Source: Isurus oxyrinchus (taxonomy: Eukaryota). Taken from it: a stretch of DNA of 64,000 bases. The stretch is from contig JANJGN010000052.1 of NCBI GenBank assembly GCA_026770705.1, forward strand, positions 3,906,001 to 3,970,000, given 5' to 3'. Of this stretch, positions 10,483-53,701 are shown piece by piece (within the stretch, counting starts at the first letter, position 1; every line of letters starts with the position of its first letter). A program made the position numbers and the translations under genes. Below the pieces are notes generated by a model. It was not told where the DNA came from. It made no database searches and saw only the letters and a program-made list of their open reading frames with translations.

Positions 10483-10731
10483 TCAGTTTCTCTTGAATCT
10501 GATCTGTGCGTATTCCGTCTGCTCTTCCCTGTGGACAGACCCATCACCACTGGGCACCCTGAAGACTTGGGGATTGGTGTAGAGAAGGTCGTTGGGATTG
10601 TCGGGGTTCCCATGTCCAGCATCGCCTCCCACTGGACCTTCAGAGAGACCCCGGGGAGCTGGGGTCTCCCCCTCACTAGTTGTATCTCTGGTTGTGTTCC
10701 GGGGCTCAGTAATCAGCACGTTCTGTTTACC
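10483..10731 (-). pseudogene. Orphan Siglec terminal cytoplasmic exon (LLYTNP degenerate ITIM; TEYAQI ITSM-like)
   Basis: ctgtag| acceptor, 249 nt, open to stop; paralog of 53453-53701; no TM exon found upstream. Confidence 0.85.
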
Positions 10732-10874
10732 CTACAGAGAAACGGAAACAGAAGGCATCCTCACATCATTTACTGGCACTGATAGGGTTAAATTATTCTG
10801 CAGCCTCGTTAGTATCAGTCGTGGGTCAGTGGGTTTAACCCTCTCTCACATGTTTTATGAAAGAAAACACCTAT

Positions 10875-11155
10875 GGCAGTGCAGTGCTCCCTCAGTACTG
10901 ACCCTTCGATAGTGCAGCACTTCCTCAATGCTGACCATCCAACAGTGCAGCACTCCCTCAGTACTGACCCTCCGACAGTGCAGCGCTCCCTCAGTACTGA
11001 CCCTCCAACAGTGCAGCGCTCCCTCAGTACTGACCCTCCGACAGTACAGGTCTTCCTCAGTACTGACCCTCTGACAGTGCAGCACTCCCTCAGTACTGAC
11101 CCTCTGACAGTGCAGCACTCCCTCAGTACTGACCCTCTGTCAGTCTCGCACTCCC
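10875..11155. repeat. 33-bp SINE-derived minisatellite
   Basis: Tandem units. Confidence 0.9.
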
Positions 11156-11285
11156 TCGGTAAGGCTCTGGCGAGTGTCGGCTTGGATTCTGCACTCAGGT
11201 GCCTGGTTTGAGGCTCAATAACATGAATCTTGTAATCAGAGAGAGGATGAGAGAGAGAGAGAGAGATGAAGGGTCAGAGACAGAG

Positions 11286-12043
11286 CGTTATGAATCTATT
11301 AATGTATGTATTGTAATTGGAAATTGTCTTTTTAAACAGAGGTTTAGTCTGTGGGTGTGTGTGTGTGTGTTTTAATTGGATTAAAGCCAGCCGGTCTGGG
11401 GACTTTGATGTATAGTAGTTTTGAGATGTAAACAAAGAGGTAAAGAGGCATATTGCATTTTTAAAAGGAGGATTCAAAGCCTGGGAGTGAATTCTTAAAC
11501 CAATCAATGTTGATATTACTAATAAAATTGATACTATGAAACGGGATTTATAGTTAGAAGAGATGGAGTTCAAAGGTCCTGATGATACAATGAGAATTTA
11601 CATTCAAAGAGAAGCACTGGGTATAACTTGAGCAGTTTTGTGTGTGCAGAGCAGAGGCTTGTAACATCAAAGCAGCTGTAAGCCTGCACATGTCTGCAAT
11701 GGAACCAAAGTGAAAGGAACCTCATTTGGAATTTGTGAGGTGAAAATGCTTCGCTTGGAATCTGCTTAAAGTCTATGGGTTGTCTTAGAGGACGTTAGTT
11801 TGGGAATTTGTTAAAAAGTTATGATAGTACTAGTTTGTAGCGATGTGCATATGATTAACTTGTGAAAATTAATAAATGTCTCATGTAGTTTGATATAAAA
11901 CCATCTCAAGAACTGGTGGTCTTATTCCTGAATTTAGAGCTGCATCTCAAACATTCCACTGGGAAATATAGGTTATGACAGTTGTTTAAAGTTTCCCTCT
12001 GGGATTTTAAACAACAGCCTTTACCAGTTGCTGTGTCATAACA
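11286..12043 (+). mobile_element. Solo LTR-like element
   Basis: (T>C)GTTATGA..TCATAACA inverted termini; internal AATAAA; same family as 6852-7667. Confidence 0.7.
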
Positions 12044-12178
12044 GAGAGACAGCATGATATTGAACCATTGCTGACTCCACAGGTACAAATCAGTGGGTAA
12101 CTGGGCAGGGAATCTGTGACATGTGTTGTCTACACACTGAGATTGAAGCTTTGGAGTGAGTGTAAACAGTTCCTGTAC

Positions 12179-12260
12179 CTGGTGTTTCACAGAGAGTGGA
12201 CTGGGGGTCAATGCAATGTCTCTGGTCCCTGAAACTCTCTCCTCCATCGCTGTCTTTCTC
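12179..12260 (-). pseudogene. Orphan juxtamembrane cytoplasmic exon (RKTAMEERVSGTRDIALTPSPLSVKHQ)
   Basis: ttgcag| and CAG|gtacag; 82 nt; paralog of 52264-52345. Confidence 0.85.
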
Positions 12261-12394
12261 CTGCAATAACACAATATTACACTGTGGTTATCATATAGCA
12301 GAGAGTCAGTGCAGCACAGACACAGAGCCCACTGTAATCTTAGACCAACGACTGGGACTGTCTCTTTAAATCAGTTCTATACAAAGCACAGAAT

Positions 12395-12860
12395 CAAGAA
12401 GCTTGACACCATCCAGGACAAAGCAGCCCGATTGATCTACACCCCATCCCCCACATTAAACATTCACTCCCTCCACAACGAACACACAGTGGAAGCAGTG
12501 TGTGTACCATCTACAAGATGCACTGCAGCAACTCAGCAGGGCTCCTTCAACAGCACCTTCCAAACCCACGACCTCTACCATCTAGAAGGACAAGGGCAGC
12601 AGACACATGGGAACACCACCACCTGGAAGTTCCCCTCCAAGTCACTCACCATCCTGACTTGGAAATATATCATCGTTCCTTCACTGTCACTGGGTCAAAA
12701 TCCCGGAACTCCCTCCCTAACAGCACTGTGGGTGTACCTACACCACATGGACTGCAGCGGGTCAAGAAGGCTGATCACCACCACCTTCTCAAGTGCAATT
12801 AGGGATGGGCATTAATGCTGGCTTCACCAGTGACAGCCACATTCGATGTAAGAATTAAAA
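12395..12860 (+). mobile_element. LINE 3' fragment
   Basis: KKLDTIQDKAARLI..; same 3' end as the 55.5-55.96 kb copy. Confidence 0.8.
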
Positions 12861-13433
12861 ATCTCACAGCTCAATGTATTTATTGGGATCCTCCTGCACA
12901 CACGCCCTGTCGAAGGAGCCTTTGTGGTTCCATTGTTAATCAAAGCAGATCAGACTTACTGCAACTACTTGCATTTATATAGCACCTTTAATGTAGCAAA
13001 ATGTCCCAAGGCTCATCCGGGAATTGTTAGTCACATCTTCACCTGACTCTGAGGCACATGAGGAGATATAAGGGACAGGAGACCAACAGCTGCGTCAACA
13101 AAGTCAGTTATTAACGGGCATCTTAAAGGAGGAGCTGGAGATAGAGAATGAGTGACAGACACAGAAAGAAAGACAGAGAGAGGGAGAGAGAGAACAAGAG
13201 AGCGAGAGAGAGAGAGAGAGAGACAGAGAGAGACAGTGAATCTCTATCCCCAGTGGCTCAGCATCCAGTCCTCTCTGGAGAAGCATTTCATTCCAAACCA
13301 CACCAACCGCAGCCCAATCCCATCCCTTCCTCCCTCTCTCCCCCTCTCCCCCAGTGGGTTGTTTCCCGTTCCCAGGAATCTCAATCACTACCCCCACCCC
13401 CATACCTCCTCACTCCCTCTCCCCATTTTTCAT

Positions 13434-13682
13434 TCAGTTATGCTCGAACCTGATCTGTGCGTATTCCGTCTCCTGATCCCTGTGGACAGACCCATCATCA
13501 CTGGACATCCTCAATACTTGGGGATTGGCGTAGAGAAGGTCGTTGGGATTGTCGATGTGCCAATGTCCAGCATCGCCTCCCAATGCACCTTCAGAGAGAC
13601 CCCGGGGAGCTGGGGTCTCCCCCTTACTAGTTGTGTCTCTGGTTGTGTTCCGGGGCTCAGTAATCAGCACGTTCTGTTTACC
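13434..13682 (-). pseudogene. Second orphan Siglec terminal cytoplasmic exon (LLYANP; TEYAQI)
   Basis: ctgtag| acceptor, 249 nt, open; upstream lies minisatellite, then the gene B promoter on the opposite strand. Confidence 0.85.
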
Positions 13683-13824
13683 CTACAGAGAAATGGAAAC
13701 AGAAGACATCCTCACATCAATTACTGGCACTGATAGGGTTAAATTATTGTGCAGCCTCGTTAGTGTCAGTCGTGTCTCAGTGGGTTTAACCCTCTCTCTC
13801 ATGTCATCTGAAAGAAACCACCTA

Positions 13825-14619: not shown

Positions 14620-14763
14620 ACCCACTTCCACATTTTGTCTCACAGTGACACATCAACCCTTTCTAATTAAATACACAGAGGGAGCAGCACAGGAAGAGGT
14701 CATTCTGCCCAAGCAGAGCGGGTGGGCAGTTCCTCCCCAGGCAAGCAGTCGGACAGGTCCTGG
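14620..14763 (+). promoter_or_regulatory. Gene B putative promoter and non-coding first exon
   Basis: Inverted homolog of 6195-6340; CACTTCC ETS site, TAATTAAATA, CCTGG|gtaagt donor at 14764. Confidence 0.55.
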
Positions 14764-15213
14764 GTAAGTAACGGAACGATTGGAATTCACTTCCACCACC
14801 AACACTGTCCTTTGTTGATGTTGTGACTTTATAAAGACAGATTCCAATGATTGATGCCTTTGAAAGATTTCTACTGATTATTGAGATCTGGGTGTGAGGC
14901 TCAAGTCTGTTGTACAGAACATCTTTCTAGCTCAAGGGATGAGGGAAGAGCAGAGACATGAGCTTTGGGACATCTTGAGGTGGTGCAAGGTGCTATAGAA
15001 ATGCAAACCCTTCATTGTTTTTCTTTGTTAAAGTCTTGTGACTCTCTGCAGAGCACCTATCATCCCACAGATAATCAAATTAGTCTGAGAAAACATTGCC
15101 TAAAAGCAGTTCTGATCTCTCGAGAGCTGTCGGACAATAGGTGAGGTCTCATTATCTCCTTTCTCTTTCATAGCTTGAGAGTCAGAAGTGGATGGAATAT
15201 CTGGCAGTGGACA

Positions 15214-15253
15214 ATGATCGGGAAATCTTACTTCCTCCTGTCACTTCTCCAAG
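15214..15253 (+). CDS. Siglec-like gene B: leader coding part, MIGKSYFLLSLLQ
   Basis: ATG at 15214, CAAG|gtaata donor, phase 1. Confidence 0.88.
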
Positions 15254-19145: not shown

Positions 19146-19511
19146 CTGGACTACCACAAGTGTGGAAAGGTGACACTCCAGGAGAGGTGACAGCGCAGGA
19201 AGGTTCGTGTGTACAGATTCCGTGTCATTACAGCTACCCATCATATTTAGTACCGAGATCACCTGTTGGAATCTGGTATATGAGAAGGAATTGGGAAACA
19301 TGGTCTATAGCCTTTCACTCCAAGGATCACAGTCGCGAGTTACCACGGTTCCACCATCGGACCCGGCTTTCTGGAGACCTGAAAGATGGTGACTGTTCCC
19401 TGATTATAAACAACATCAGACGGGAAGATGCAGGATATTATTTATTCAGAACAGATTTTGACAGCAGGAATAGATACAACGACCGTCCTGAAACCCAGCT
19501 TCATGTTTCTG
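19146..19511 (+). CDS. Siglec-like gene B: V-set exon V1
   Basis: ccctag| and TCTG|gtaagt; 366 nt; SCVQIPC, GDCSL, DAGYYLFRTD with the essential Arg. Confidence 0.93.
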
Positions 19512-20384
19512 GTAAGTGCTGTGTTATAATTACTCAACAATTCACATCCAACACTCAATGGGAAATAATAGTGTTTGATTTGCTTGTTTTTTGGCCGTGT
19601 TAACCAGCGTCACTATTTTTAATGATTTGTCTATTTCTGCTCCCAGATCCATGAGCTTATTGTGTGTGATTGAATCCACATCATAGCTGTAACGTAAACC
19701 GAGCTGAGGGGTGATGACACCTCCCCCCTGAGTGAAGTGTCTCCTCCCCACTACACCTTCCACCCCTCACACTGTCTGTGTAATCTCCCGTCCCATCCCC
19801 AGCCTCTCTTTCCCCTCCAAAGTCCTGCAACGTGTTTCCATCTCCCGAATCCGTTCCCATCTTTCCCGGAACTCCATGTTTGAATCCCTTCAATCAGGTT
19901 CCCACCCCAGCCACTGTGCTGAAACAGCTCTTATTTTTATTGAGCCAATGCCAAGCCCCGATACCGAGCGAGAGCCTCCTCATTTGCTGAGTTTAAGGTG
20001 ATGAGTCAGCCCCTTAGTCCGTAGAGGGGATTCTCCTCGGTAATGTGCAGCCTTGTTTGTGTCTCTCCACAAGTGCATGAGGGGTTTGTACAGAGGCTGC
20101 AGCGCTGGAGGGGGTCTGCACAGGGGTCCTGGCCTGTCCTGAGCCAGTTTTAGCAAGGACAACTCTGGCCTTGGCAGCTGAAAGCCAGCCATTGGACAGA
20201 CGGGGCCTGTCACAAGGAGCCTGTTAGTCCCTCCCCCCCGTGTCTCCTGTGCTCAGATCCAGACCATGTTGGCTGGTGGATCTGGCTCAGGAAGGGTCCT
20301 CCCCATGGGACCCCCAGATGGAAGGTGGGTCGAGCGGGTCAGTCACTTGCATGTTTATTCTGCAGCTTTAATATTTTAGGAAGG

Positions 20385-21120
20385 TAAGAATGTAGGAACA
20401 TAAGAAATAGGGACAGGAGCAGGCCATTCGGTCCCTCCAGCCTGCTCTCACTGATCTGGTTGCGGCCTTAACTCCATTTTCCTGCTTGTCCCCCAAACCC
20501 TTGACTCCCTTGTCGATCAAAAACCTGCCTCACTCAGCCTTGAGTCTATTCAATGGCCCAGCCTCCACTGCTCTCTGGGGAAGAGAATTCCACAGGCTAG
20601 CGCCCCTCTGAGAGAGGAAATTCCTCCTCATCTCAGTCTTAAATGGGAGAGCCCTCATTCCGAAACTGTGCTCCCTGGTTCTAGATTCCCCCACGAGGGG
20701 GAAACATCCTCCCAGCATCCACCCTGTCAAGCCCCCTCGGAATCGGATATGTTTCAATAAGGTCACCCCTCATTCTTCTAAACTCCAATGGATACAGGCC
20801 CAACCTGCTCAACATTTCCTCACAGGACAAACCCTTTAATCCTAGGAATCAGCCCAGTGAAGCTTCTCTGAACTGCCTGTACACAATGATCCTGTTACAA
20901 TCTCACTAACACCCTGTGCAGCTGTTGCAAAACTTCCCTCCTTTTATACTCCATCCCTTTGCAATAAAGGCCAACATTCCACTTGCCTTCCTCATTCCGT
21001 GGTGTTCCTGAATGCTGACTTTCTGTGATTCATGTACCAGGACACCCAGATCCCTCTGTACTGCATTCTGCAGCCTGTCTCCATTTAAATTATATCCTGT
21101 TTTTCTATTCTTCCTGACAA
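20385..21120 (-). mobile_element. CR1-clade LINE 3' fragment
   Basis: QRDLGVLVHESQKVS.., FKTEMRRNFLSQR..LWNSLPQRAVEA; CR1-type tail. Confidence 0.85.
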
Positions 21121-21241
21121 TATAATTTGTTGCCATTCTCCTCAGTATTGACCATCCCCCCAATTCAGCCTCATCTGTAAATATTGGGTTCAGTGGATCC
21201 ACAAACCATCCAGAGATAAATATTGAGATTTCTCTCCCCAG

Positions 21242-21607
21242 CTGAACCCTCGCAAGAGTGGAAAGGTGACAATCCACGAGAGGTGACAGTGCAGGAAGGT
21301 TCGTGTGTACAGATTCCATGTCATTACAGTTATCCATCGTGTCTGGAAAACCAACCGCGAGGTGGAGTCTGGTTTAATAATGAGGAATGGAGAACATCGT
21401 CTATAGCCTTTCACTCCAAGGATCACAGTCACGAGTTACCACGGTTCCACCATTGCACCTGGCTGTCTGGAGACCTGAAAGATGGCGACTGTTCCCTGAT
21501 TATAAACAACATCAGACGGGAAGATGCGGGTCCTTGTTTTTTCAGAATAGAATTTGACAATGGTCCGAGGCATAACTATTACCCTGTAACCCAGCTTCAC
21601 ATTTCTG
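21242..21607 (+). CDS. Siglec-like gene B: second V-set exon V2 (open frame, possibly impaired)
   Basis: ccccag| and TCTG|gtaagt; 366 nt; Arg kept (FFRIE); three extra Cys, one replacing the tyrosine-corner Tyr (DAGPC). Confidence 0.85.
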
Positions 21608-22954: not shown

Positions 22955-23108
22955 TGACATCTGAATATCACAATGAACAGAACAAGTTCCAACAATGAGC
23001 TGTGGTTGGTGATTCCTCACGTTACATCCAGGGACACTGGAGACTATCAGTGTGCTCAGAGAATGAACATGGAGCAGTGGAGGGGTTCATAACCATCACT
23101 GTGGAACG
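22955..23108 (+). pseudogene. Gene B: disrupted Ig3 exon (3' half only)
   Basis: 5' half and acceptor replaced by unrelated sequence; begins TGA; 1-nt deletion (tgtgctcagag vs tgtgtggcagag); donor gttagt. Confidence 0.88.
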
Positions 23109-24221: not shown

Positions 24222-24361
24222 ACAGTGGAGGAGAGATTCTGCACGTGATCCTGATCCTGGGAATACGAGCTGTGATATTCCTTGTGGCTGTGGTTATCAC
24301 TATCACTGGAGTCTGTGTCTGGGAGAGACAAACAGTGAAAGGAAGTCGACAGACTGTTTGA
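24222..24361 (+). CDS. Gene B: terminal exon, activating-type TM with Arg and a short tail (DSGGEILHVILILGIRAVIFLVAVVITITGVCVWERQTVKGSRQTV*)
   Basis: ctctag| acceptor, phase 1, in frame with C2; hydrophobic helix with one Arg; no Tyr motifs; TGA at 24359-24361. This frame is not in the ORF track. Confidence 0.85.
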
Positions 24362-39403: not shown

Positions 39404-39803
39404 GTTTGAGCCTCACGCCCGGTGGTTGGTTCCTGTCCCAGCTGAGGACTGGTGCCATGTTGTACATCCTGTAAATCCCGCCAGTCTCTCCCAGCACTTT
39501 CCATGCCTGGCGCTATTTCCATGGTGCGCTTCAAATCGATGTCGGCTTCTGCGAGTAAACGGCTCTGAATGGCGTTGGGGTGAACGACACAAACCAATCG
39601 GCCCCGCAACATGTCATTGAGTGTGTCTCCGAGGTCCCAGTGCTCAGTCACCTGCTTCCACTTCACTGTATAGGTTGCGATGGACTCTCCCTGGGCCCTT
39701 ACTCTGGAGTTAAACTTAAACCTTTTCATTATTACCCACGGCTTCAGCTGAAAATACATCTTCATGAGGTCGACTAATTGGTGAAAAGATTTAGAATTGG
39801 GTG
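38690..39803 (-). mobile_element. Degenerate Gypsy/Ty3 gag-protease fragment
   Basis: RFKFNSRVRAQGESIA..LNDMLRGRLVC (gag); CSRCGGH and CHHCHKKG zinc knuckles; VNGQPLVM/DMGAS and GEGPSLLGRDW (aspartic protease); frameshifted. Confidence 0.88.
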
Positions 39804-40092
39804 TAATACACGTCACTGTCTTCAGCTCTGAGACTGTCAATCCTCACCAAACAATTCTTCCCTTCCAAGTCGCCGATTATTTTAGCACGTCCCACGAATG
39901 TGGCCATCGCATAATTGGGATCTTTGGTGTATGTGATGGTATATTTCCATCTATACCAATATTTATACCAAGCTCCGTGCAGTGCTGTGTAAGAGTGGGA
40001 AGGCAGGTCAAAGCTACACGGAATAACCACACAAGAGCTGCTGATAGCCCTCCGAGGTAGCGCCTTCATAGACCATCCCTCTGACGTCACTC
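39804..40092 (-). pseudogene. Gene D: divergent MAG/Siglec-like V-set exon truncated at DSDVYY
   Basis: tttcag| acceptor; W..SSCVVIPCSF..HGAWY..FVGRAKIIGDLEGKNC..DSDVYY, then gag sequence and a stop at 39791-39793. Confidence 0.85.
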
Positions 40093-40124
40093 CTGAAAGG
40101 CAACAAGGGAGGGGACTGAACATC

Positions 40125-40600
40125 AAAAAGCAGAATATTACTTCAATGGAGAGAGTCTACAGAATGCGGTACAGAGGGATCTGGGTGTCCTTGTACATGA
40201 ATCACAGAAAGTCAGCATTCAGGAACACCACGGAATGAGGAAGGCAAGTGGAATGTTGGCCTTTATTGCAAAGGGGTGGAGTATAAAAGGAGGGAAGTCT
40301 TGCTACAACTGTACAGGGCGTTGGTGAGATTGTATCAGGAGCAGTGTGTACAGTTCTGGTCTCCTTACTTAGGGAGGGATAGACTCTGCATTGGAGGCAG
40401 TTCAGAGGAGGTTCACTGGGCTGATTCCTGGGATGAAGGGGGTTTGTCTTATGAGGAAATGTTGAGCAGGTTGGGCCCTGTATCCATTGGAGTTTAGAAG
40501 AATGAGAGGTGATCTTATTGAAACATATAAGATTCTGAGGTGGTGGGGGGTTTGACAGGGTGGATGCTGAGGGGATGTTACCCCTTGTGGGGGAATCCTG
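40125..40600 (+). mobile_element. CR1-clade LINE fragment in the gene D intron
   Basis: EYKRREVLLQLYRALVR..CVQFWSPY. Confidence 0.85.
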
Positions 40601-40912
40601 TGAAGCAATAAGGATGTTTTACTGCATTAAAGGTGCTATATAAATGCACTGTCATTCCTATTGAAACAAGCTCTCTGATGCACAAACAGAAAATGCTGGA
40701 AAAACTCAGCAGGTCTGACAGCATCTGTGGAGAGAGAAACAGAGTTGGTGTTTCGAGTCCGTATGAGGCTTTTTCTTTTGCTATATTCTCTGACTCGCTA
40801 TTCACTCAATCTCTGTGTGATCACTAACCCTGTTCTCTAAAATTAAATGTTCACTTCCTCACTCCAGGAAAGAATCCAATTCCCTGAGTTCCGATCAGTA
40901 ATGAATTTGTAC

Positions 40913-40958
40913 CTTGCAGCAAGCTGATGAAGATCAATATCAGACCGACCTCTCCCAT
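40913..40958 (-). pseudogene. Gene D: leader coding part, MGEVGLILIFISLLQ(G)
   Basis: ATG at 40958, CAAG|gtacaa donor, phase 1, in frame with the V exon. Confidence 0.8.
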
Positions 40959-41224
40959 CTTCAGTTCCTCATCTAAATGGAAATGATAAAGACAGAGACT
41001 TTTTCAGAAATTGTCCCCAGTGTTTCTTCCTCAAACAACAACTTGTGTTTAAATGGCACCTTTCAGGGAATTAAACAGCCCCAGGGAATTATCTAATGTC
41101 AAGACAAGGAAGGAGAGATTGAGAAGGGACATCGCAAACCGATTCACCAAACACAGCAAAAATTCATTGTTCCCTCACTCCCTCTGCTCGGTGTCCAGCT
41201 TTTTCTCTTAGTGAGTTAAGCCCT

Positions 41225-47501: not shown

Positions 47502-47783
47502 ACGCACCACGGAATCTCTTAATTACTTCTCTGGATATGATTAACGTTTCATCGATCAATATAATTGAGGGGAATTCTGCAGTGATAATCTGCTCTGTCG
47601 AGAGCTTCCCAGCTTCTAACCTGACGTGGCAACATCTTAATGTCCAAATGAACAGATCAAGTTCCAACAATGAGCTGTGGTTGGTGATTCCTCACGTTAC
47701 ATCCAGGGACACTGGAGACTATCAGTGTGTGGCAGAGAATGAACATGGAGCAGTGGAGGGATTCATAACCATCACTGTGGAAT
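47502..47783 (+). CDS. Tail C: Ig3 repeat exon 1
   Basis: ttttag| and GAAT|gtgagt; 282 nt. Confidence 0.9.
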
Positions 47784-48537
47784 GTGAGTGTACACAGACT
47801 TCAACATCTCTCACACACACACTCACACATGCAAAAACACTCATGTGTAGACACAAACATGCACGCTTACACACAAACATACCTTCAAACACATACACAG
47901 AAACACACACAAACTCAACTCACACATACAAACATTCATGCGCACACAAAGACACACACATGCACACACACTCCCTCAAGCACAGACATACAGACATACA
48001 CACACAGACACACACACACACACACACACACACGCGTCCACACATGTGCTGACAGACACGCGCATACACACAAATACAAACTCACGTGCAGAAGTACACA
48101 CACAAGTGTGAGCTCCCTCTCCTCTCTCAGTTCTGCACTGGAGTCATGGTATCAGCTCCCATTCTGTGCTGAAGGAAGGTAAACTCCAGATCAGCAAGAC
48201 CCTGAATTGGATGAGCAACCTCCTGAACAGAGAAATGTAGATTTAGCCCTCAGTGCTCCATCGATCAAATACAATTCATTGCCTATCAAGCCCTTGGGGA
48301 CATCTTGAGAGTGTTAAAGGATGTTTCTTTCATTCTAGAGGGTTAGCAACTCTACTGGTGGGAGGAAGCAACTGCAGTGTGACAGTTTACATAGGAAGTG
48401 TCCATTATAAATATGACAGTAATTTTTCATGAGGGAAGGTACCTGGAAAAGCATTCCAACATCAGATACAGAGAGATGATGCATGGAGTCTTGCTGTGCA
48501 CTATGCTTGCTCACATTAAAATCTTTATTTCTTTTAG

Positions 48538-48818
48538 ACGCACCCAGAATCTCTCAATTAATTCTCTTGATATGATTAACGCTTCATCGATCAATATAAT
48601 TGAGGGGAATTCTGCAGTGATAATCTGCTCTGTCGAGAGCTTCCCAGCTTCTAACCTGACGTGGCGACATCTTAATGTCCCAGTGAACAGAACAAGTTCC
48701 AACAATGAGCTGTGGTTGGTGATTCCTCACGTTACATCCAGGGACACTGGAGACTATCAGTGTGTGGCAGAGAATGAACATGGAGCAGTGGAGGGGTTCA
48801 TAACCATCACTGTGGAAC
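48538..48818 (+). pseudogene. Tail C: Ig3 repeat exon 2, frameshifted
   Basis: 281 nt; acgcacccagaat vs atgcaccacagaat (1-nt deletion); reads APRISQLILLI* if spliced normally. Confidence 0.8.
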
Positions 48819-48844
48819 GTGAGTTACTGCAAACTCCAACATCA

Positions 48845-48885
<41 letters not shown>

Positions 48886-49623
48886 ACACACACACACACA
48901 CGCACACACACACAGACACACACACACACAGACAGAAACCTGTAGGCATACACATGCATAATTATCCACACACAGTCATACACATACAAGCACATACACA
49001 GGAAAATACACACCCATCTCAAACACACACACACATTCATGCCCACACATAGACACACACATACACATACTCTCACTCATGGACAGACCTAGACACACAG
49101 ACACATGCGCATGCGCACACACAGACACATGTGTGCATACACACACAAACACACTCACATGTGCAGAAACACAAACACACAGATACACACACATGAGGTC
49201 CCTCTCCTCTCTCAGTGCCGCACTGGAGTCTTGGTATCAGCTCCGATTCTGTGTTGAAGGAAGGTAAACTCCAGATCAACAAGACCCTGAATTGGATGAG
49301 CAACCTCCTGAACAGAGAATGGTAGATTTACCCCTCAGTGCTCCATCAATCAAATACAATTCAATGGCTTTCAATCCCTTGGGGGCATCTTGAGAGTGTT
49401 AAAGGATGTTTCTTTCATTCTAGATGGACAGCAACTCTACTGGTGGGAGAATGCAACTGCAGTGTGACAGTTTACATAGGAAATGCCCATTATAAATGTG
49501 ACAGTATTTTTTCCTGAGGGAAGGTACCTGGAAATGCATTCCAATATCAGATACAGAGAGATGATGCATGGAGTCTTGCTGTGCACTATGCTTGCTCACA
49601 TTAAAATCTTTATTTATTTTTAG

Positions 49624-49905
49624 ACACACCACGGAATCTCTTAATTACTTCTCTGGATATGATTAACGTTTCATCGATCAATATAATTGAGGGGAATTCT
49701 GCAGTGATAATCTGCTCTGTCGAGAGCTTCCCAGCTTCTAACCTGACGTGGCAACATCTTAATGTCCAAATGAACAGAACAAGTTCCAACAATGAGCTGT
49801 GGTTGGTGATTCCTCACGTTACATCCAGGGACACTGGAGACTATCAGTGTGTGGCAGAGAATGAACATGGAGCAGTGGAGGGATTCATAACCATCACTGT
49901 GGAAT
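49624..49905 (+). CDS. Tail C: Ig3 repeat exon 3
   Basis: ttttag| and |gtgagt; 282 nt. Confidence 0.9.
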
Positions 49906-50396
49906 GTGAGTGTACACAGAATTCAACATCTCTCTCAGATTTGAACACATATACACAAATGCACACCCACATGCACACACAAGCACTCACTGCACTGGAG
50001 TCTCGGTATCAGCTCCAATTCTGGATGGAACGAAGGTAAACTACAGATCAACAAGTCCCTGAATTGGATGAGCAACCTTCTGAACAGAGAATTGTATATT
50101 TACCCCTCAGTGCTCCATCGATCAAATACAATCATTGCCTGTCAAGCCCTTGGGGACATCCTGAGGATGTGAAAGCAAATTCCTTTCATTCTAGGTGGAC
50201 AGCGCCTCTACTGGTGGGAGAATGTAACTGCAGTTTGACTGTTTACATAGGCAGTGCCCATTATAAATTTGACAGTGGAAGTTATATGGAGTGGAGGGAC
50301 CTGGCTATGCATACAGACATCAGATACAGAGAGATGATGCATGGAGTCTTGCTGTAAACTGTGCTTGCTCACATTAAACACTTGATTTGTTCTTAG

Positions 50397-50678
50397 ATGC
50401 TCCACAGAATCTCTTATTTACTTCTCTTGATATGATTAACGCTTCATCGATCAATATAATTGAGGGGAATTCTACAGTGATAATCTGCTCTGTCGAGAGC
50501 TTCCCAGCTTCTAACCTGACGTGGCGACATCTTAATGTCCCAATGAACAGAACAAGTTCCAACAATGAGCTGTGGTTGGTGATTCCTCACGTTACATCCA
50601 GGGACACTGGAGACTATCAGTGTGTGGCAGAGAATGAACATGGAGCAGTGGAGGGATTCATAACCATCACTGTGGAAT
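50397..50678 (+). CDS. Tail C: Ig3 repeat exon 4
   Basis: tcttag| and |gtgagt; 282 nt. Confidence 0.9.
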
Positions 50679-51494
50679 GTGAGTGTGGAGATACATTTGT
50701 TTGTTTGTTGTCTCCGTGGTCTCCGTGGAGCCATTGGGATCGTGTTGTTTTTAATCCAGTTTTCTTCAATCCTCGCTCAGTCCACGTTATCCACACATCC
50801 AATTTTTCCTCTCCCTTTCTGTTTTTGCTCTCAGTTTCTCCTTCAATGGTTGTGAGGACAAGGCTGTCAGGTCTTCGTTTCCAATCTCCATACTTGACGA
50901 CCTTTCTCTCTCTAACTGTCCTGAACAACCCTTTTAATCGCTGAACTTCTCATTCTTTAATTGAAAAATATTATATATAAACGTTACATGGATTACTTTG
51001 AAATGCAACACTTCTATTCATAAATTGCTTAGAAATTACTAAACATTCAACAGACAATGAAGCAATAGCGAAGTGAGCTCACTGTTGAAATGTAGGAAAC
51101 ACAGGTACTGATTTGTGCACAGCAAGATCCCGCATACATCGTGTGATAATGACCTGATAGTCGACTATTTTAGTGAGGTTGGTTGTTACATGTGTAGAGA
51201 CTACATACCCTTTAGGGAGGTAAGCATGTCTCGATGTGGATGTGACTCCAGTCTCAGACACCAGCATGGTTAACTCTTACCTGCCCTCTGAACTGGTCTC
51301 CCAGTTTGGGACAAACCAGTGGTTCAGGAACAAGACTCCCCACCACCATCTCAAGGGGAAACTAGTGATGGACAATAAATGTCAGCATTGCCCGAGAATG
51401 AGTATTTAAACATTGAGTGAGTGTATCGCTTCTCGAGATACATCGGAGCATCATTGTAAACCTGTAGTGCAGTAATTAATGGCTGTTTTTACAG

Positions 51495-51591
51495 GTAGAG
51501 ACTCCAGTAAATGGACAGTAGGATTGTTCACGGCTGGGATCATGTTGAGTGTTTTCCTGGCTGGAATCTTCATCTTCATCTGTGTGAGAAA
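51495..51591 (+). CDS. Tail C: neutral TM exon (RDSSKWTVGLFTAGIMLSVFLAGIFIFICVR)
   Basis: ttacag| and GAAA|gtaagt; 97 nt, phase 1-2. Confidence 0.88.
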
Positions 51592-52263
51592 GTAAGTCTG
51601 AAGATTTAACTTGATTTTAATATAAACATTTGCTTCAATGTTCTTTCCTTAAGTCGGTGATTGTTTCCCTTGGGATCAGCACCAGGTCCCTCTCTGTAAG
51701 TGATCCCTGTGTCCACTCTGATCCGGAGAGAACCTTTCATTGTCCTGTATCCAGGTAAACGATCACGAGACTCAGAGATTCCTCACTCTGCACGATTACT
51801 CCTGGATAAATATTTGCTTCAATGTTCTTTCCTTAAGTCGGTGATTGTTTCCCTTGTGTTAAGCGCCAGATGCCTCTCCGTAACTGGTCTCTTTATCCGT
51901 TATGATCCAGAGAGTGTTTTTCATTGCCCGTTATCCAGATGAATAATAATCAGTTGCTGTGATCTGGAAGGTGCTGCCTGAAAGGGCGGTGGAAGCAGAT
52001 TCAATAGGAACTTTCAAAAGGGGAATTGGATAAATACTTGAAGGGGGAAAATTTGAAGGGCTACGGGGGGAAGAGCAGGGATGGAGGGGTCAGACAAAAT
52101 TGAATCACATGACACACTTCCATTATAGTGATATCACGCTGATATCCCTTATTGCAACTGGAGACAGTCCAGTCGTTTGTGTAAGGTTACAGTGGGCTCT
52201 GTGTCTGTGCTGCACTGACTCTCTGCTATATGATAACCACAGTGTGATATTGTGTTATTGCAG

Positions 52264-52345
52264 GAGAAAGACAACGATGGAGGAGAGAGTTTCAGGGACC
52301 AGTGACGTTGCATTGAGCCCCAGTCCACTCTCTGTGAAGCACCAG
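52264..52345 (+). CDS. Tail C: juxtamembrane cytoplasmic exon
   Basis: ttgcag| and CAG|gtacag; 82 nt, phase 2-0; (K)RKTTMEERVSGTSDVALSPSPLSVKHQ. Confidence 0.88.
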
Positions 52346-52559
52346 GTACAGGAGCTGTTTACACTAACTCCAAAGCTTCAATATCAGTGTGTAGACAACA
52401 CGTGTCCCAGATTCCCAACCCAGTTACCCACAGATATCTACCTGTGGAGTCAGCAATGGCTCAGTAGGTAATATTGACTTTCGGTCCCTTCCCCCTCTCT
52501 CCCTCCATCACTCGCTCTTTGTCCAGAGACCTGAACACAATAATCATAAGGCACCTGAT

Positions 52560-53090
52560 GTCACTACTGAGGGAGTGCTGCACTGTCGGAGGGTAGGTAC
52601 TGAGGGAGTGCTGCACTGTCGGAGTGTCAGTACTGAGGCAGTGCTGCACTGTCGGAGGGTCATTACTGAGGGAGTGCTGAACTGTCGGAGGGTAGGTACT
52701 GAGGGAGTGCTGCACTGTCGGAGTGTCAGTACTGAGGCAGTGCTGCACTGTCGGAGGGTCAGTACTGAGGGAGTGCTGCACTGTCGGAGGGTCAGTACTG
52801 AGGGAGTGCTGCACTGTCGGAGGGTAGGTACTGAGGGAGTGCTGCACTTTCGGAGGGTCACTACTGAGGGAGTGCTGCACTGTCGGAGGGTAGGTACTGA
52901 GGGAGTGTTGCACTGTCGGAGTGTCAGTACTGAGGCAGTGCTGCACTGTCGGAGGGTCAGTAGTGAGGGAGTGCTGCACTGTCGGAGGGTCAGTACTGAG
53001 GGAGCGCTGCACTGTTGGAGTGTCAGTACTGAGGGAGTGCTGCACTGTGCGAGGGTCAGTACTGAGGGGGTGCTGCACTGTCGAATAGTC
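52560..53090. repeat. 33-bp minisatellite within a SINE remnant
   Basis: About 16 units. Confidence 0.9.
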
Positions 53091-53452
53091 AATATTCAAG
53101 TGGTGCTGCCTTCTCGAAGAGGCAGTTGTGAGGGAGTGCCGCACTGTCAGAAGCCAGCACTGAGAGTACATTGTAGTGTTCAAGGTGCTGTCTTTCAGAA
53201 CAGTTGTATAATGCTGACCATGTTTACCCTCTCAGGTGGTCGTATAAGATCCCATGGCCACATTTCCAACACTATAGCAGTGACACCCTTCAACAAAAAT
53301 TTCTTCATTTGCGTGAGGTTCTTTGGATGTCTTTGAAAAAAAGGGTTAAACGCTCTGAGCCACGACTGACACTAGCGAGGCTGCACAATAATTTAACCCT
53401 ATCAGTGCCAGTAAATGATGTGAGGATGTCTTCTGTTTCCATTTCTCTGTAG

Positions 53453-53701
53453 GGTAAACAGAACGTGCTGATTACTGAGCCCCGGAACACAACCAGAGAC
53501 ACAACTAGTGAGGGGGAGACCCCAGCTCCCCGGGATCTCTCTGAAGGTCCAGTGGGAGGCGATGTTGGACATGGGAACCCCGACAATCCCGTCGAGCTTC
53601 TCTACGCCAACATCAACTTTTCAAAGCTGCCCAGCGGTGACAGGACTGTGCACAGGAGCGAGGACACGGAATACGCACAGATCAGGTTCCAGAAAAACTG
53701 A
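53453..53701 (+). CDS. Tail C: terminal exon with ITIM (LLYANI) and ITSM/ITIM-like motif (TEYAQI)
   Basis: ctgtag| acceptor, phase 0; motif pair typical of inhibitory CD33-related Siglecs. Confidence 0.92.
   Translation, partial: GKQNVLITEPRNTTRDTTSEGETPAPRDLSEGPVGGDVGHGNPDNPVELLYANINFSKLPSGDRTVHRSEDTEYAQIRFQKN

Follow-up and report, generated by a model that had tools for sequence, protein, structure and literature searches.

The 64,000-nucleotide window of Isurus oxyrinchus DNA analysed here, at G000:C52:3906001-3970000, carries, on the forward strand, a Siglec-like gene in which a leader exon is followed by two tandem V-set exons (V1 and V2), a C2-set exon (C1), and a terminal exon encoding an Arg-bearing transmembrane (TM) span (Table 1). 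The N-terminus of the leader is also found in database homologues. V1 and V2 are each 366 nucleotides long (122 codons), lie in phase 1-1, and are open in the phase-1 frame; their acceptors end in AG (CCCCCTAG and CTCCCCAG, respectively), their donors are identical (TTTCTG/GTAAGTGCT; GTAAGT), and their translations start with GLPQVW (V1) and EPSQEW (V2). The intron between them has GT–AG ends and spans 1,730 nucleotides. Both exons match the Pfam V-set (51.8 bits for V1 and 34.2 bits for V2) and Ig_CD22 families, and all near-invariant positions are unchanged in V1 in comparison with homologous domains. The two copies are 83% alike across 485 nucleotides, comprising the exon and about 60 nucleotides of each flank, with the homology confined to this segment; at the protein level, 83 of 121 residues are identical, and the differences are concentrated in residues 33–52 and 97–115. 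The joined leader–V1–V2–C1–TM frame has 402 codons, and a single-V form would, by arithmetic, have 280. The tandem V exons are a real feature of the locus: the sequence-only reading had described two 366-nucleotide exons of phase 1-1 with intact splice sites, and the coordinates, AG acceptors, GT donors, and open frames all agree with it, as does the start of C1 at 22336. A second leader was looked for ahead of V2 and none was found, so that the two V exons share a sole leader, as had been claimed. The earlier reading also took both starts for the end of the signal peptide, so that either V exon could follow the leader; the two exons are not interchangeable, V2 being of an internal type (Cys33 and the EPSQ start).

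Table 1. Features of the Siglec-like gene and of the downstream module (positions in the window)
Feature	Position	Strand	Description
Leader exon, coding part	15214–15253	+	MIGKSYFLLSLLQ plus 1 nucleotide; donor GTAATA
V1	19146–19511	+	First-type Siglec V-set exon; Cys21, Cys26, and Cys83; essential Arg101
V2	21242–21607	+	Internal-type V-set exon; extra BC-loop Cys33; Arg101; R71C, Y98C, and R73W
C1	22336–22632	+	First C2-set exon (PF08205); Cys22, Cys28, and Cys80; Cys28 aligned with MAG Cys165
Second C2 exon remnant	22956–23108	+	Dead (5' half missing, frameshift); skipped
Terminal TM exon	24222–24361	+	Arg in membrane span; short tail without tyrosine motif; stop at 24359–24361
Headless inhibitory 3' module	47502–53701	+	Four C2 exons, uncharged TM, cytoplasmic exon, and tyrosine-motif tail

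By all sequence tests applied, the gene belongs to the Siglec family, and its product may bind sialic acid. The best PDB sequence matches of V1 are sialoadhesin and MAG (E values, 2e-14 to 1e-13), the F-strand Arg101 is kept in both V exons, and that of V1 is aligned with Arg97 of sialoadhesin. The Siglec cysteine pattern is present as judged by alignment only (Cys21, Cys26, and Cys83 in the V domain; Cys22, Cys28, and Cys80 in C1), and a C2-set domain (PF08205 match) is combined with a single TM span. The closest database proteins come from the white shark and the basking shark. White-shark P0124 (XP_041037141.1) is modelled as leader–V1 type–V2 type–C1–TM and is 87/87/97/93% identical part by part; the TM exon is 93% identical to both P0124 and another white-shark model, P0024. 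The inter-domain Cys pair between the V and C2 domains was seen by aligning P0124 to MAG and CD33, and the AlphaFold model of P0124, which has a helix at 363–397 (mean pLDDT, 75), matches CD33, MAG, and Siglec-10 among many generic Ig matches. Since the Arg sits close to the outer edge of the membrane, the predicted adaptor would be FcR-gamma rather than DAP12; Siglec-14, Siglec-15, and Siglec-16 are activating Siglecs with a charged TM. The positive charge in the membrane span and the short tail are common to the shark gene and the activating charged-TM Siglecs, which are described together with the essential Arg in PMC8161119. MAG, sialoadhesin, and the CD33-related Siglecs also have a V-set and a C2-set domain, the F-strand Arg, and the inter-domain Cys pair, known as the disulfide C37–C165 in MAG (PMC5150538) and as the same bond in Siglec-6 (PMC10122656); these proteins have one V domain and the acceptor Cys in C2, whereas the shark V2 also carries an acceptor-like Cys.

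Proteins of this kind are already modelled in databases. For the white shark, basking shark, catsharks, and rays, RefSeq has automatic models under the name 'sialic acid-binding Ig-like lectin 12'; they have the same leader, V, C1, and TM parts and are annotation only. Among 100 shark and ray homologues, 33 have 2–7 V domains, three of these being V–C1–V fusions. The isoforms of basking-shark P0001 were considered as evidence of V skipping and rejected: the 15 listed out of 20 all have the same seven V domains. Our literature search, which left most subscription journals outside, found, among the papers listed under shark, elasmobranch, or cartilaginous-fish Siglecs, none on these genes; the whale-shark genome paper, in the text available, names Siglecs once, without detail.

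The extra Cys of V2 lies seven residues past the B-strand Cys, and its counterpart in C1 six residues past. In a contiguous 470-kb tile of the genome, it is present in 15 of 15 later V exons vs none of 15 first or single V exons, and the EPSQ start likewise occurs in none of the latter 15. In stretches picked for arrays of V exons, 23 of 25 later V exons have it (the remaining two are one frameshifted exon and one without the Cys), as do two of 11 first or single V exons (three unparsed); one of these two is truly a later exon whose partner lies outside the stretch, and the other has a stop. In the 100 database proteins, it is found in 38 of 49 later domains, leaving 11 exceptions, vs three of 92 domains that come first or stand alone, 14 unparsed domains being excluded. 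The Fisher value of 6e-21 overstates the case, since these counts share ancestry and are not phylogenetically independent. Three near-identical copies of the locus (L009, L010, and L014) have a second V exon without the extra Cys; a deletion (L010:4199-5750) has put a first-type V exon directly behind V1, and the exception is probably one deletion event. The MAG residues aligned with V Cys21 and C1 Cys28 are separated by 128 positions, the spacing of C37–C165. From such alignments, Cys33 of V2 likely accepts the free cysteine of V1; a V1-only form would pair its cysteines normally, and a V2-only form would leave Cys33 unpaired.

No run among those listed for Isurus oxyrinchus is on record as RNA, which says nothing about expression, and no run among those listed holds half of the words of V1. 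Contigs of six runs guessed to be RNA, from three related organisms, were compared with the window and with L010. On the window, the V-to-C1 join and the C1-to-TM join, the latter crossing the dead C2 remnant, were seen with GT–AG ends in four of four runs each, and the leader-to-V join in run X3. Contigs read on beyond the stop of the terminal TM exon, and the relatives' contigs support the Arg-TM end. In run X1, a V–V join (19511>21243) was found with one changed letter, exact exon borders, and an EPSQ-type V start; it was seen in one of the six runs, on a single contig whose shorter side has 23–31 letters. L010 is free of the intron-2 repeat, and compared with it this contig shows the end of a V exon running into a start of the EPSQ type. 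Run X7 is from the same sample as X1, and the V–V join is absent among its matches listed. Since the upstream part of the contig has V2-like letters at two sites, the join stems from a paralogue in the relative. The V-to-C1 join also occurs on L010, in a stretch outside which its leader lies: runs X1, X3, and X4 show it, and X9 has a variant of it. The 11 joints listed for four runs include none from V1 to C1, which is weak evidence, the cover of V1-type sequence being low. The depths of the X1 contigs (94.5 for V–V and 732.1 for V–C1) are unusable as expression ratios. Of the junctions that the sequence-only reading proposed to count, the V–V one was seen in a relative (as 19511>21243), and leader-to-V2 (15253>21242) and V1-to-C1 (19511>22336) were absent among the window joints listed. 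The V–V join shows that tandem V exons of this family can be spliced together; for the gene itself, such splicing is predicted.

We consider it probable that V1 and V2 of this gene are spliced together, giving a predicted 402-residue V1–V2–C2-set receptor with an Arg-bearing span that likely engages an activating adaptor. Joint inclusion, the double-V branch of the earlier reading, is favoured because of the V–V join in X1, the distribution of the extra Cys that makes V2 an internal-type domain, the lack of an exclusion mechanism, and the joined P0124 model. The tandem duplication of a V exon, evident from homology, would be followed by default splicing in the order leader–V1–V2–C1–TM, for which the V–V, V–C1, and C1–TM joins are taken from the relatives' runs. 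In the product, judging from alignment and position, Cys21 of V1 would bond with Cys33 of V2, and Cys21 of V2 with Cys28 of C1, so that the domains would be chained as by C37–C165 in MAG. With the sialic-acid Arg in both heads, a second V domain would add reach and valence instead of acting as a switch.

The state of V2 has to be weighed against this reading. V1 has 16 matches at 97–100% identity, and since six of these lie on contig C52, assembly duplication is unlikely as the sole source of the copies, while some copies on other contigs may be alleles. Among the other 15 matches, all fetched, 12 share the V1–V2–C1–TM layout (including L005, which has no leader), and L009, L010, and L014, having a different second V exon, were excluded from the 13-copy comparison. 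V1 is open in 12 of the 13 copies, one having a stop, whereas V2 has a stop in four, two of which have also lost the V2 donor (GT to AT), with V1, C1, and TM still open. V2 has a stop or an altered conserved residue (G19, R71, D82, or Y98) in 13 of 13 copies vs three of 13 for V1, and the distinct variants across the copies number 29 in V2 vs 15 in V1. In the present copy, V2 has Cys at position 71, where 151 of 154 homologous domains have Arg, and at position 98, where 153 of 154 have Tyr; R71C and Y98C, and R73W as well, likely destabilise the domain. The two changes occur together in two copies (including L013), and a new intra-domain bond is conceivable.

V2 could accordingly be read as a decaying, skippable cassette, with leader–V1–C1–TM (280 residues) as the working product and V2-containing transcripts as waste. 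The accumulation of damage in V2 and the cysteine-compatible single-V layout of V1–C1 speak for this, but the V2 splice sites of this copy are intact and equal in strength to those of V1, a V1-to-C1 join was not seen among the joints listed, and later V exons are open in 14 of 15 cases in the tile and in 24 of 25 in the arrays. We regard the cassette as unlikely. Within the favoured reading of joint inclusion, V2 of the subfamily, which has multiplied recently, is drifting toward loss, and because of this drift the joined product of the present copy is likely impaired; the design is double-V, and the subfamily may be reverting to V1 only or dying.

The damage might reach further, in that this copy, or even all 13 copies of the subfamily, would be non-functional debris of a birth-and-death cluster. 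The pN/pS ratios among the copies are near 1 in all exons (1.11, 0.80, 1.32, and 0.58, exon by exon; p, 0.41–0.74), and purifying selection was seen in no exon of the 13 copies, a comparison of low power at about 1% divergence. The missing leader of L005, the one V1 stop, Cys changes in C1, each in a single copy of the subfamily, and the many broken neighbouring genes point the same way. Copies only about 1% apart, however, make the selection test weak, and the frame, splice sites, leader, and TM exon of this copy are intact; relatives splice V–C1–TM, and the V1 type is kept in the white shark. We think it improbable that the copy is debris.

That V1 and V2 form a mutually exclusive cassette, with one V domain per transcript and two specificities from one gene, was the other branch of the sequence-only reading, and we find it very improbable, no positive support having emerged for it. 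The equal length and phase and the location of most differences in residues 33–52 and 97–115 would suit such a switch, but joint inclusion stays in frame, both introns are GT–AG, the intron between the exons is 1,730 nucleotides long, and a V–V join exists in a relative. In Dscam-type clusters, which likewise consist of tandem, similar, equal-phase duplicated exons, exclusion is attributed, in the portion of the source available, to spatial constraint, a U2/U12 mix, nonsense-mediated decay, or competing pairings (PMC6071210). At V1–V2, a steric block, a U2/U12 mix, and a frame shift on double inclusion were checked and none was found. Within intron 1, 19 nucleotides in a row can base-pair with either donor, but this pairing was equalled in seven of 30 shuffles and is also present in single-V genes; a 21-nucleotide inverted repeat flanks V1, but was equalled in two of 30 and seven of 40 shuffles, and its variants break pairs rather than compensate. 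The docker–selector candidates (two kinds among 17 inverted repeats) were rejected as lying within or near the range of the shuffles and lacking compensatory change; the inverted-repeat search would miss short or protein-mediated elements. White-shark isoform P0119, an automatic model that skips V1 (leader–V2–C1), can come from mis-mapping, because V1 and V2 of its gene do not differ over their first 33 residues. A mutually exclusive cluster never places two of its exons in one transcript, and the paralogue join in X1 does place two there. In contrast to Dscam, no steric, spliceosome-type, frame, or above-chance pairing basis for exclusion was found at the shark exons, and a Dscam-like V switch is unlikely.

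With V1 and V2 joined as predicted, the gene would act as a double-V Siglec whose predicted end is activating, and would resemble primate SIGLEC12, which has two N-terminal V-set domains. In the sections of a Siglec review that concern it (PMC7876704), the two V-set domains of Siglec-XII are termed unique among Siglecs, an alternatively spliced truncated form is mentioned, and the protein is described as recruiting Shp2 and, in its human form, as being without the essential Arg; a literature search for wording on SIGLEC12 isoforms gave no match. Unlike SIGLEC12, the shark gene has the Arg in both V exons, a charged TM span, and a short terminal tail without Tyr in place of a tyrosine-motif inhibitory tail, and its family carries 1–10 V exons. 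The two-V layout of the shark gene likely originated independently of SIGLEC12.

A headless 3' module of the inhibitory type lies 23 kb downstream of the gene on the same strand (Table 1), and is possibly the putative second tail of the gene in the earlier reading; from its sequence, it could serve as an alternative 3' end or be a relic. The L005 copy, too, has such a module behind it. Two headless-module copies, in the window and at G000:C52:3587003-3592770 (−), each lie downstream of an Arg-TM gene on the same strand. Segment 31940–32030 was weighed as a second tail and rejected: the five paralogous segments of the tile have Ser in place of its Tyr, and no match to it was found among the fetched homologues. 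The expectation of four receptors, from two V choices and two tails, is unsupported.

The window contains further members of the family. A divergently oriented single-V neighbour runs from about 5800 down to 590 (−) and into L016, with nine near-identical C2 exons and an uncharged TM; the conserved Trp of its C1 is replaced by Arg (VLTRD), and the flanks of its V exon match the upstream flank of V1 and the downstream flank of V2. Between these two divergent genes lie orphan cytoplasmic and tyrosine-motif tail exons (10486–13721, −; 14671–14802, +), a leftover tail exon being found directly upstream of each leader. At about 39790–40960 (−) lie a leader and a V exon of a divergent Siglec-like kind, with 32% identity to V1 and a stop ahead of the F-strand Arg; the sequence after them looks, by eye, like the remnant of a retroelement. 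This leader and V element has five further occurrences in the tile.

The gene is one of several hundred related copies carrying 1–10 V exons. Exact-pattern searches of the genome gave 674 V-framework, 467 C1, 260 leader, 214 Arg-TM, and 234 Cys-type V matches; each count is a minimum for its pattern, and alleles and broken copies may be among the matches. The 214 Arg-TM exon matches, on C52, C71, C121, C150, C189, and other contigs, suggest a large activating share. In the 470-kb tile, whose genes have 1, 2, 5, or 7 V exons each, the patterns match 30 V exons, 14 C1 exons, and 14 leaders, and the stretches picked for arrays contain genes with 5, 6, 7, and 10 V exons. The gene with 10 V exons (G000:C52:2280265-2299969, −; L062–L064) has them spaced by about 2 kb; its second exon is frameshifted and its first lacks the B-strand Cys, so that a full product would arise only via skipping. 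Arrays of 5, 6, 7, and 10 V exons contain identical V repeats, which under either/or splicing would add no choice; such copies fit unequal crossing-over and concatenation, like those of the neighbouring C2 arrays.

We tentatively propose, as a reading that may well not hold, that sharks and rays possess a V-exon accordion, in which 1–10 V domains are linked head to tail by V-to-V disulfides, and change in copy number together with regulated skipping of internal V exons sets the number of sialic-acid sites per receptor. If so, several hundred activating and inhibitory genes would constitute a glycan-reading innate repertoire far exceeding the mammalian Siglec family. The two-V layout of SIGLEC12 is handled as a one-off oddity in those sections of the Siglec review (PMC7876704), whereas multi-V heads are a regular layout in this shark cluster of hundreds of V exons, where internal V domains carry a position-specific cysteine and arrays reach 10 V exons. 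The present copy is a poor example of such a head, its V2 being probably damaged. Provided that the proteins are produced, the family would offer a natural setting in which to learn whether sialic acid is bound by internal V domains and how valence tunes activating vs inhibitory signalling.
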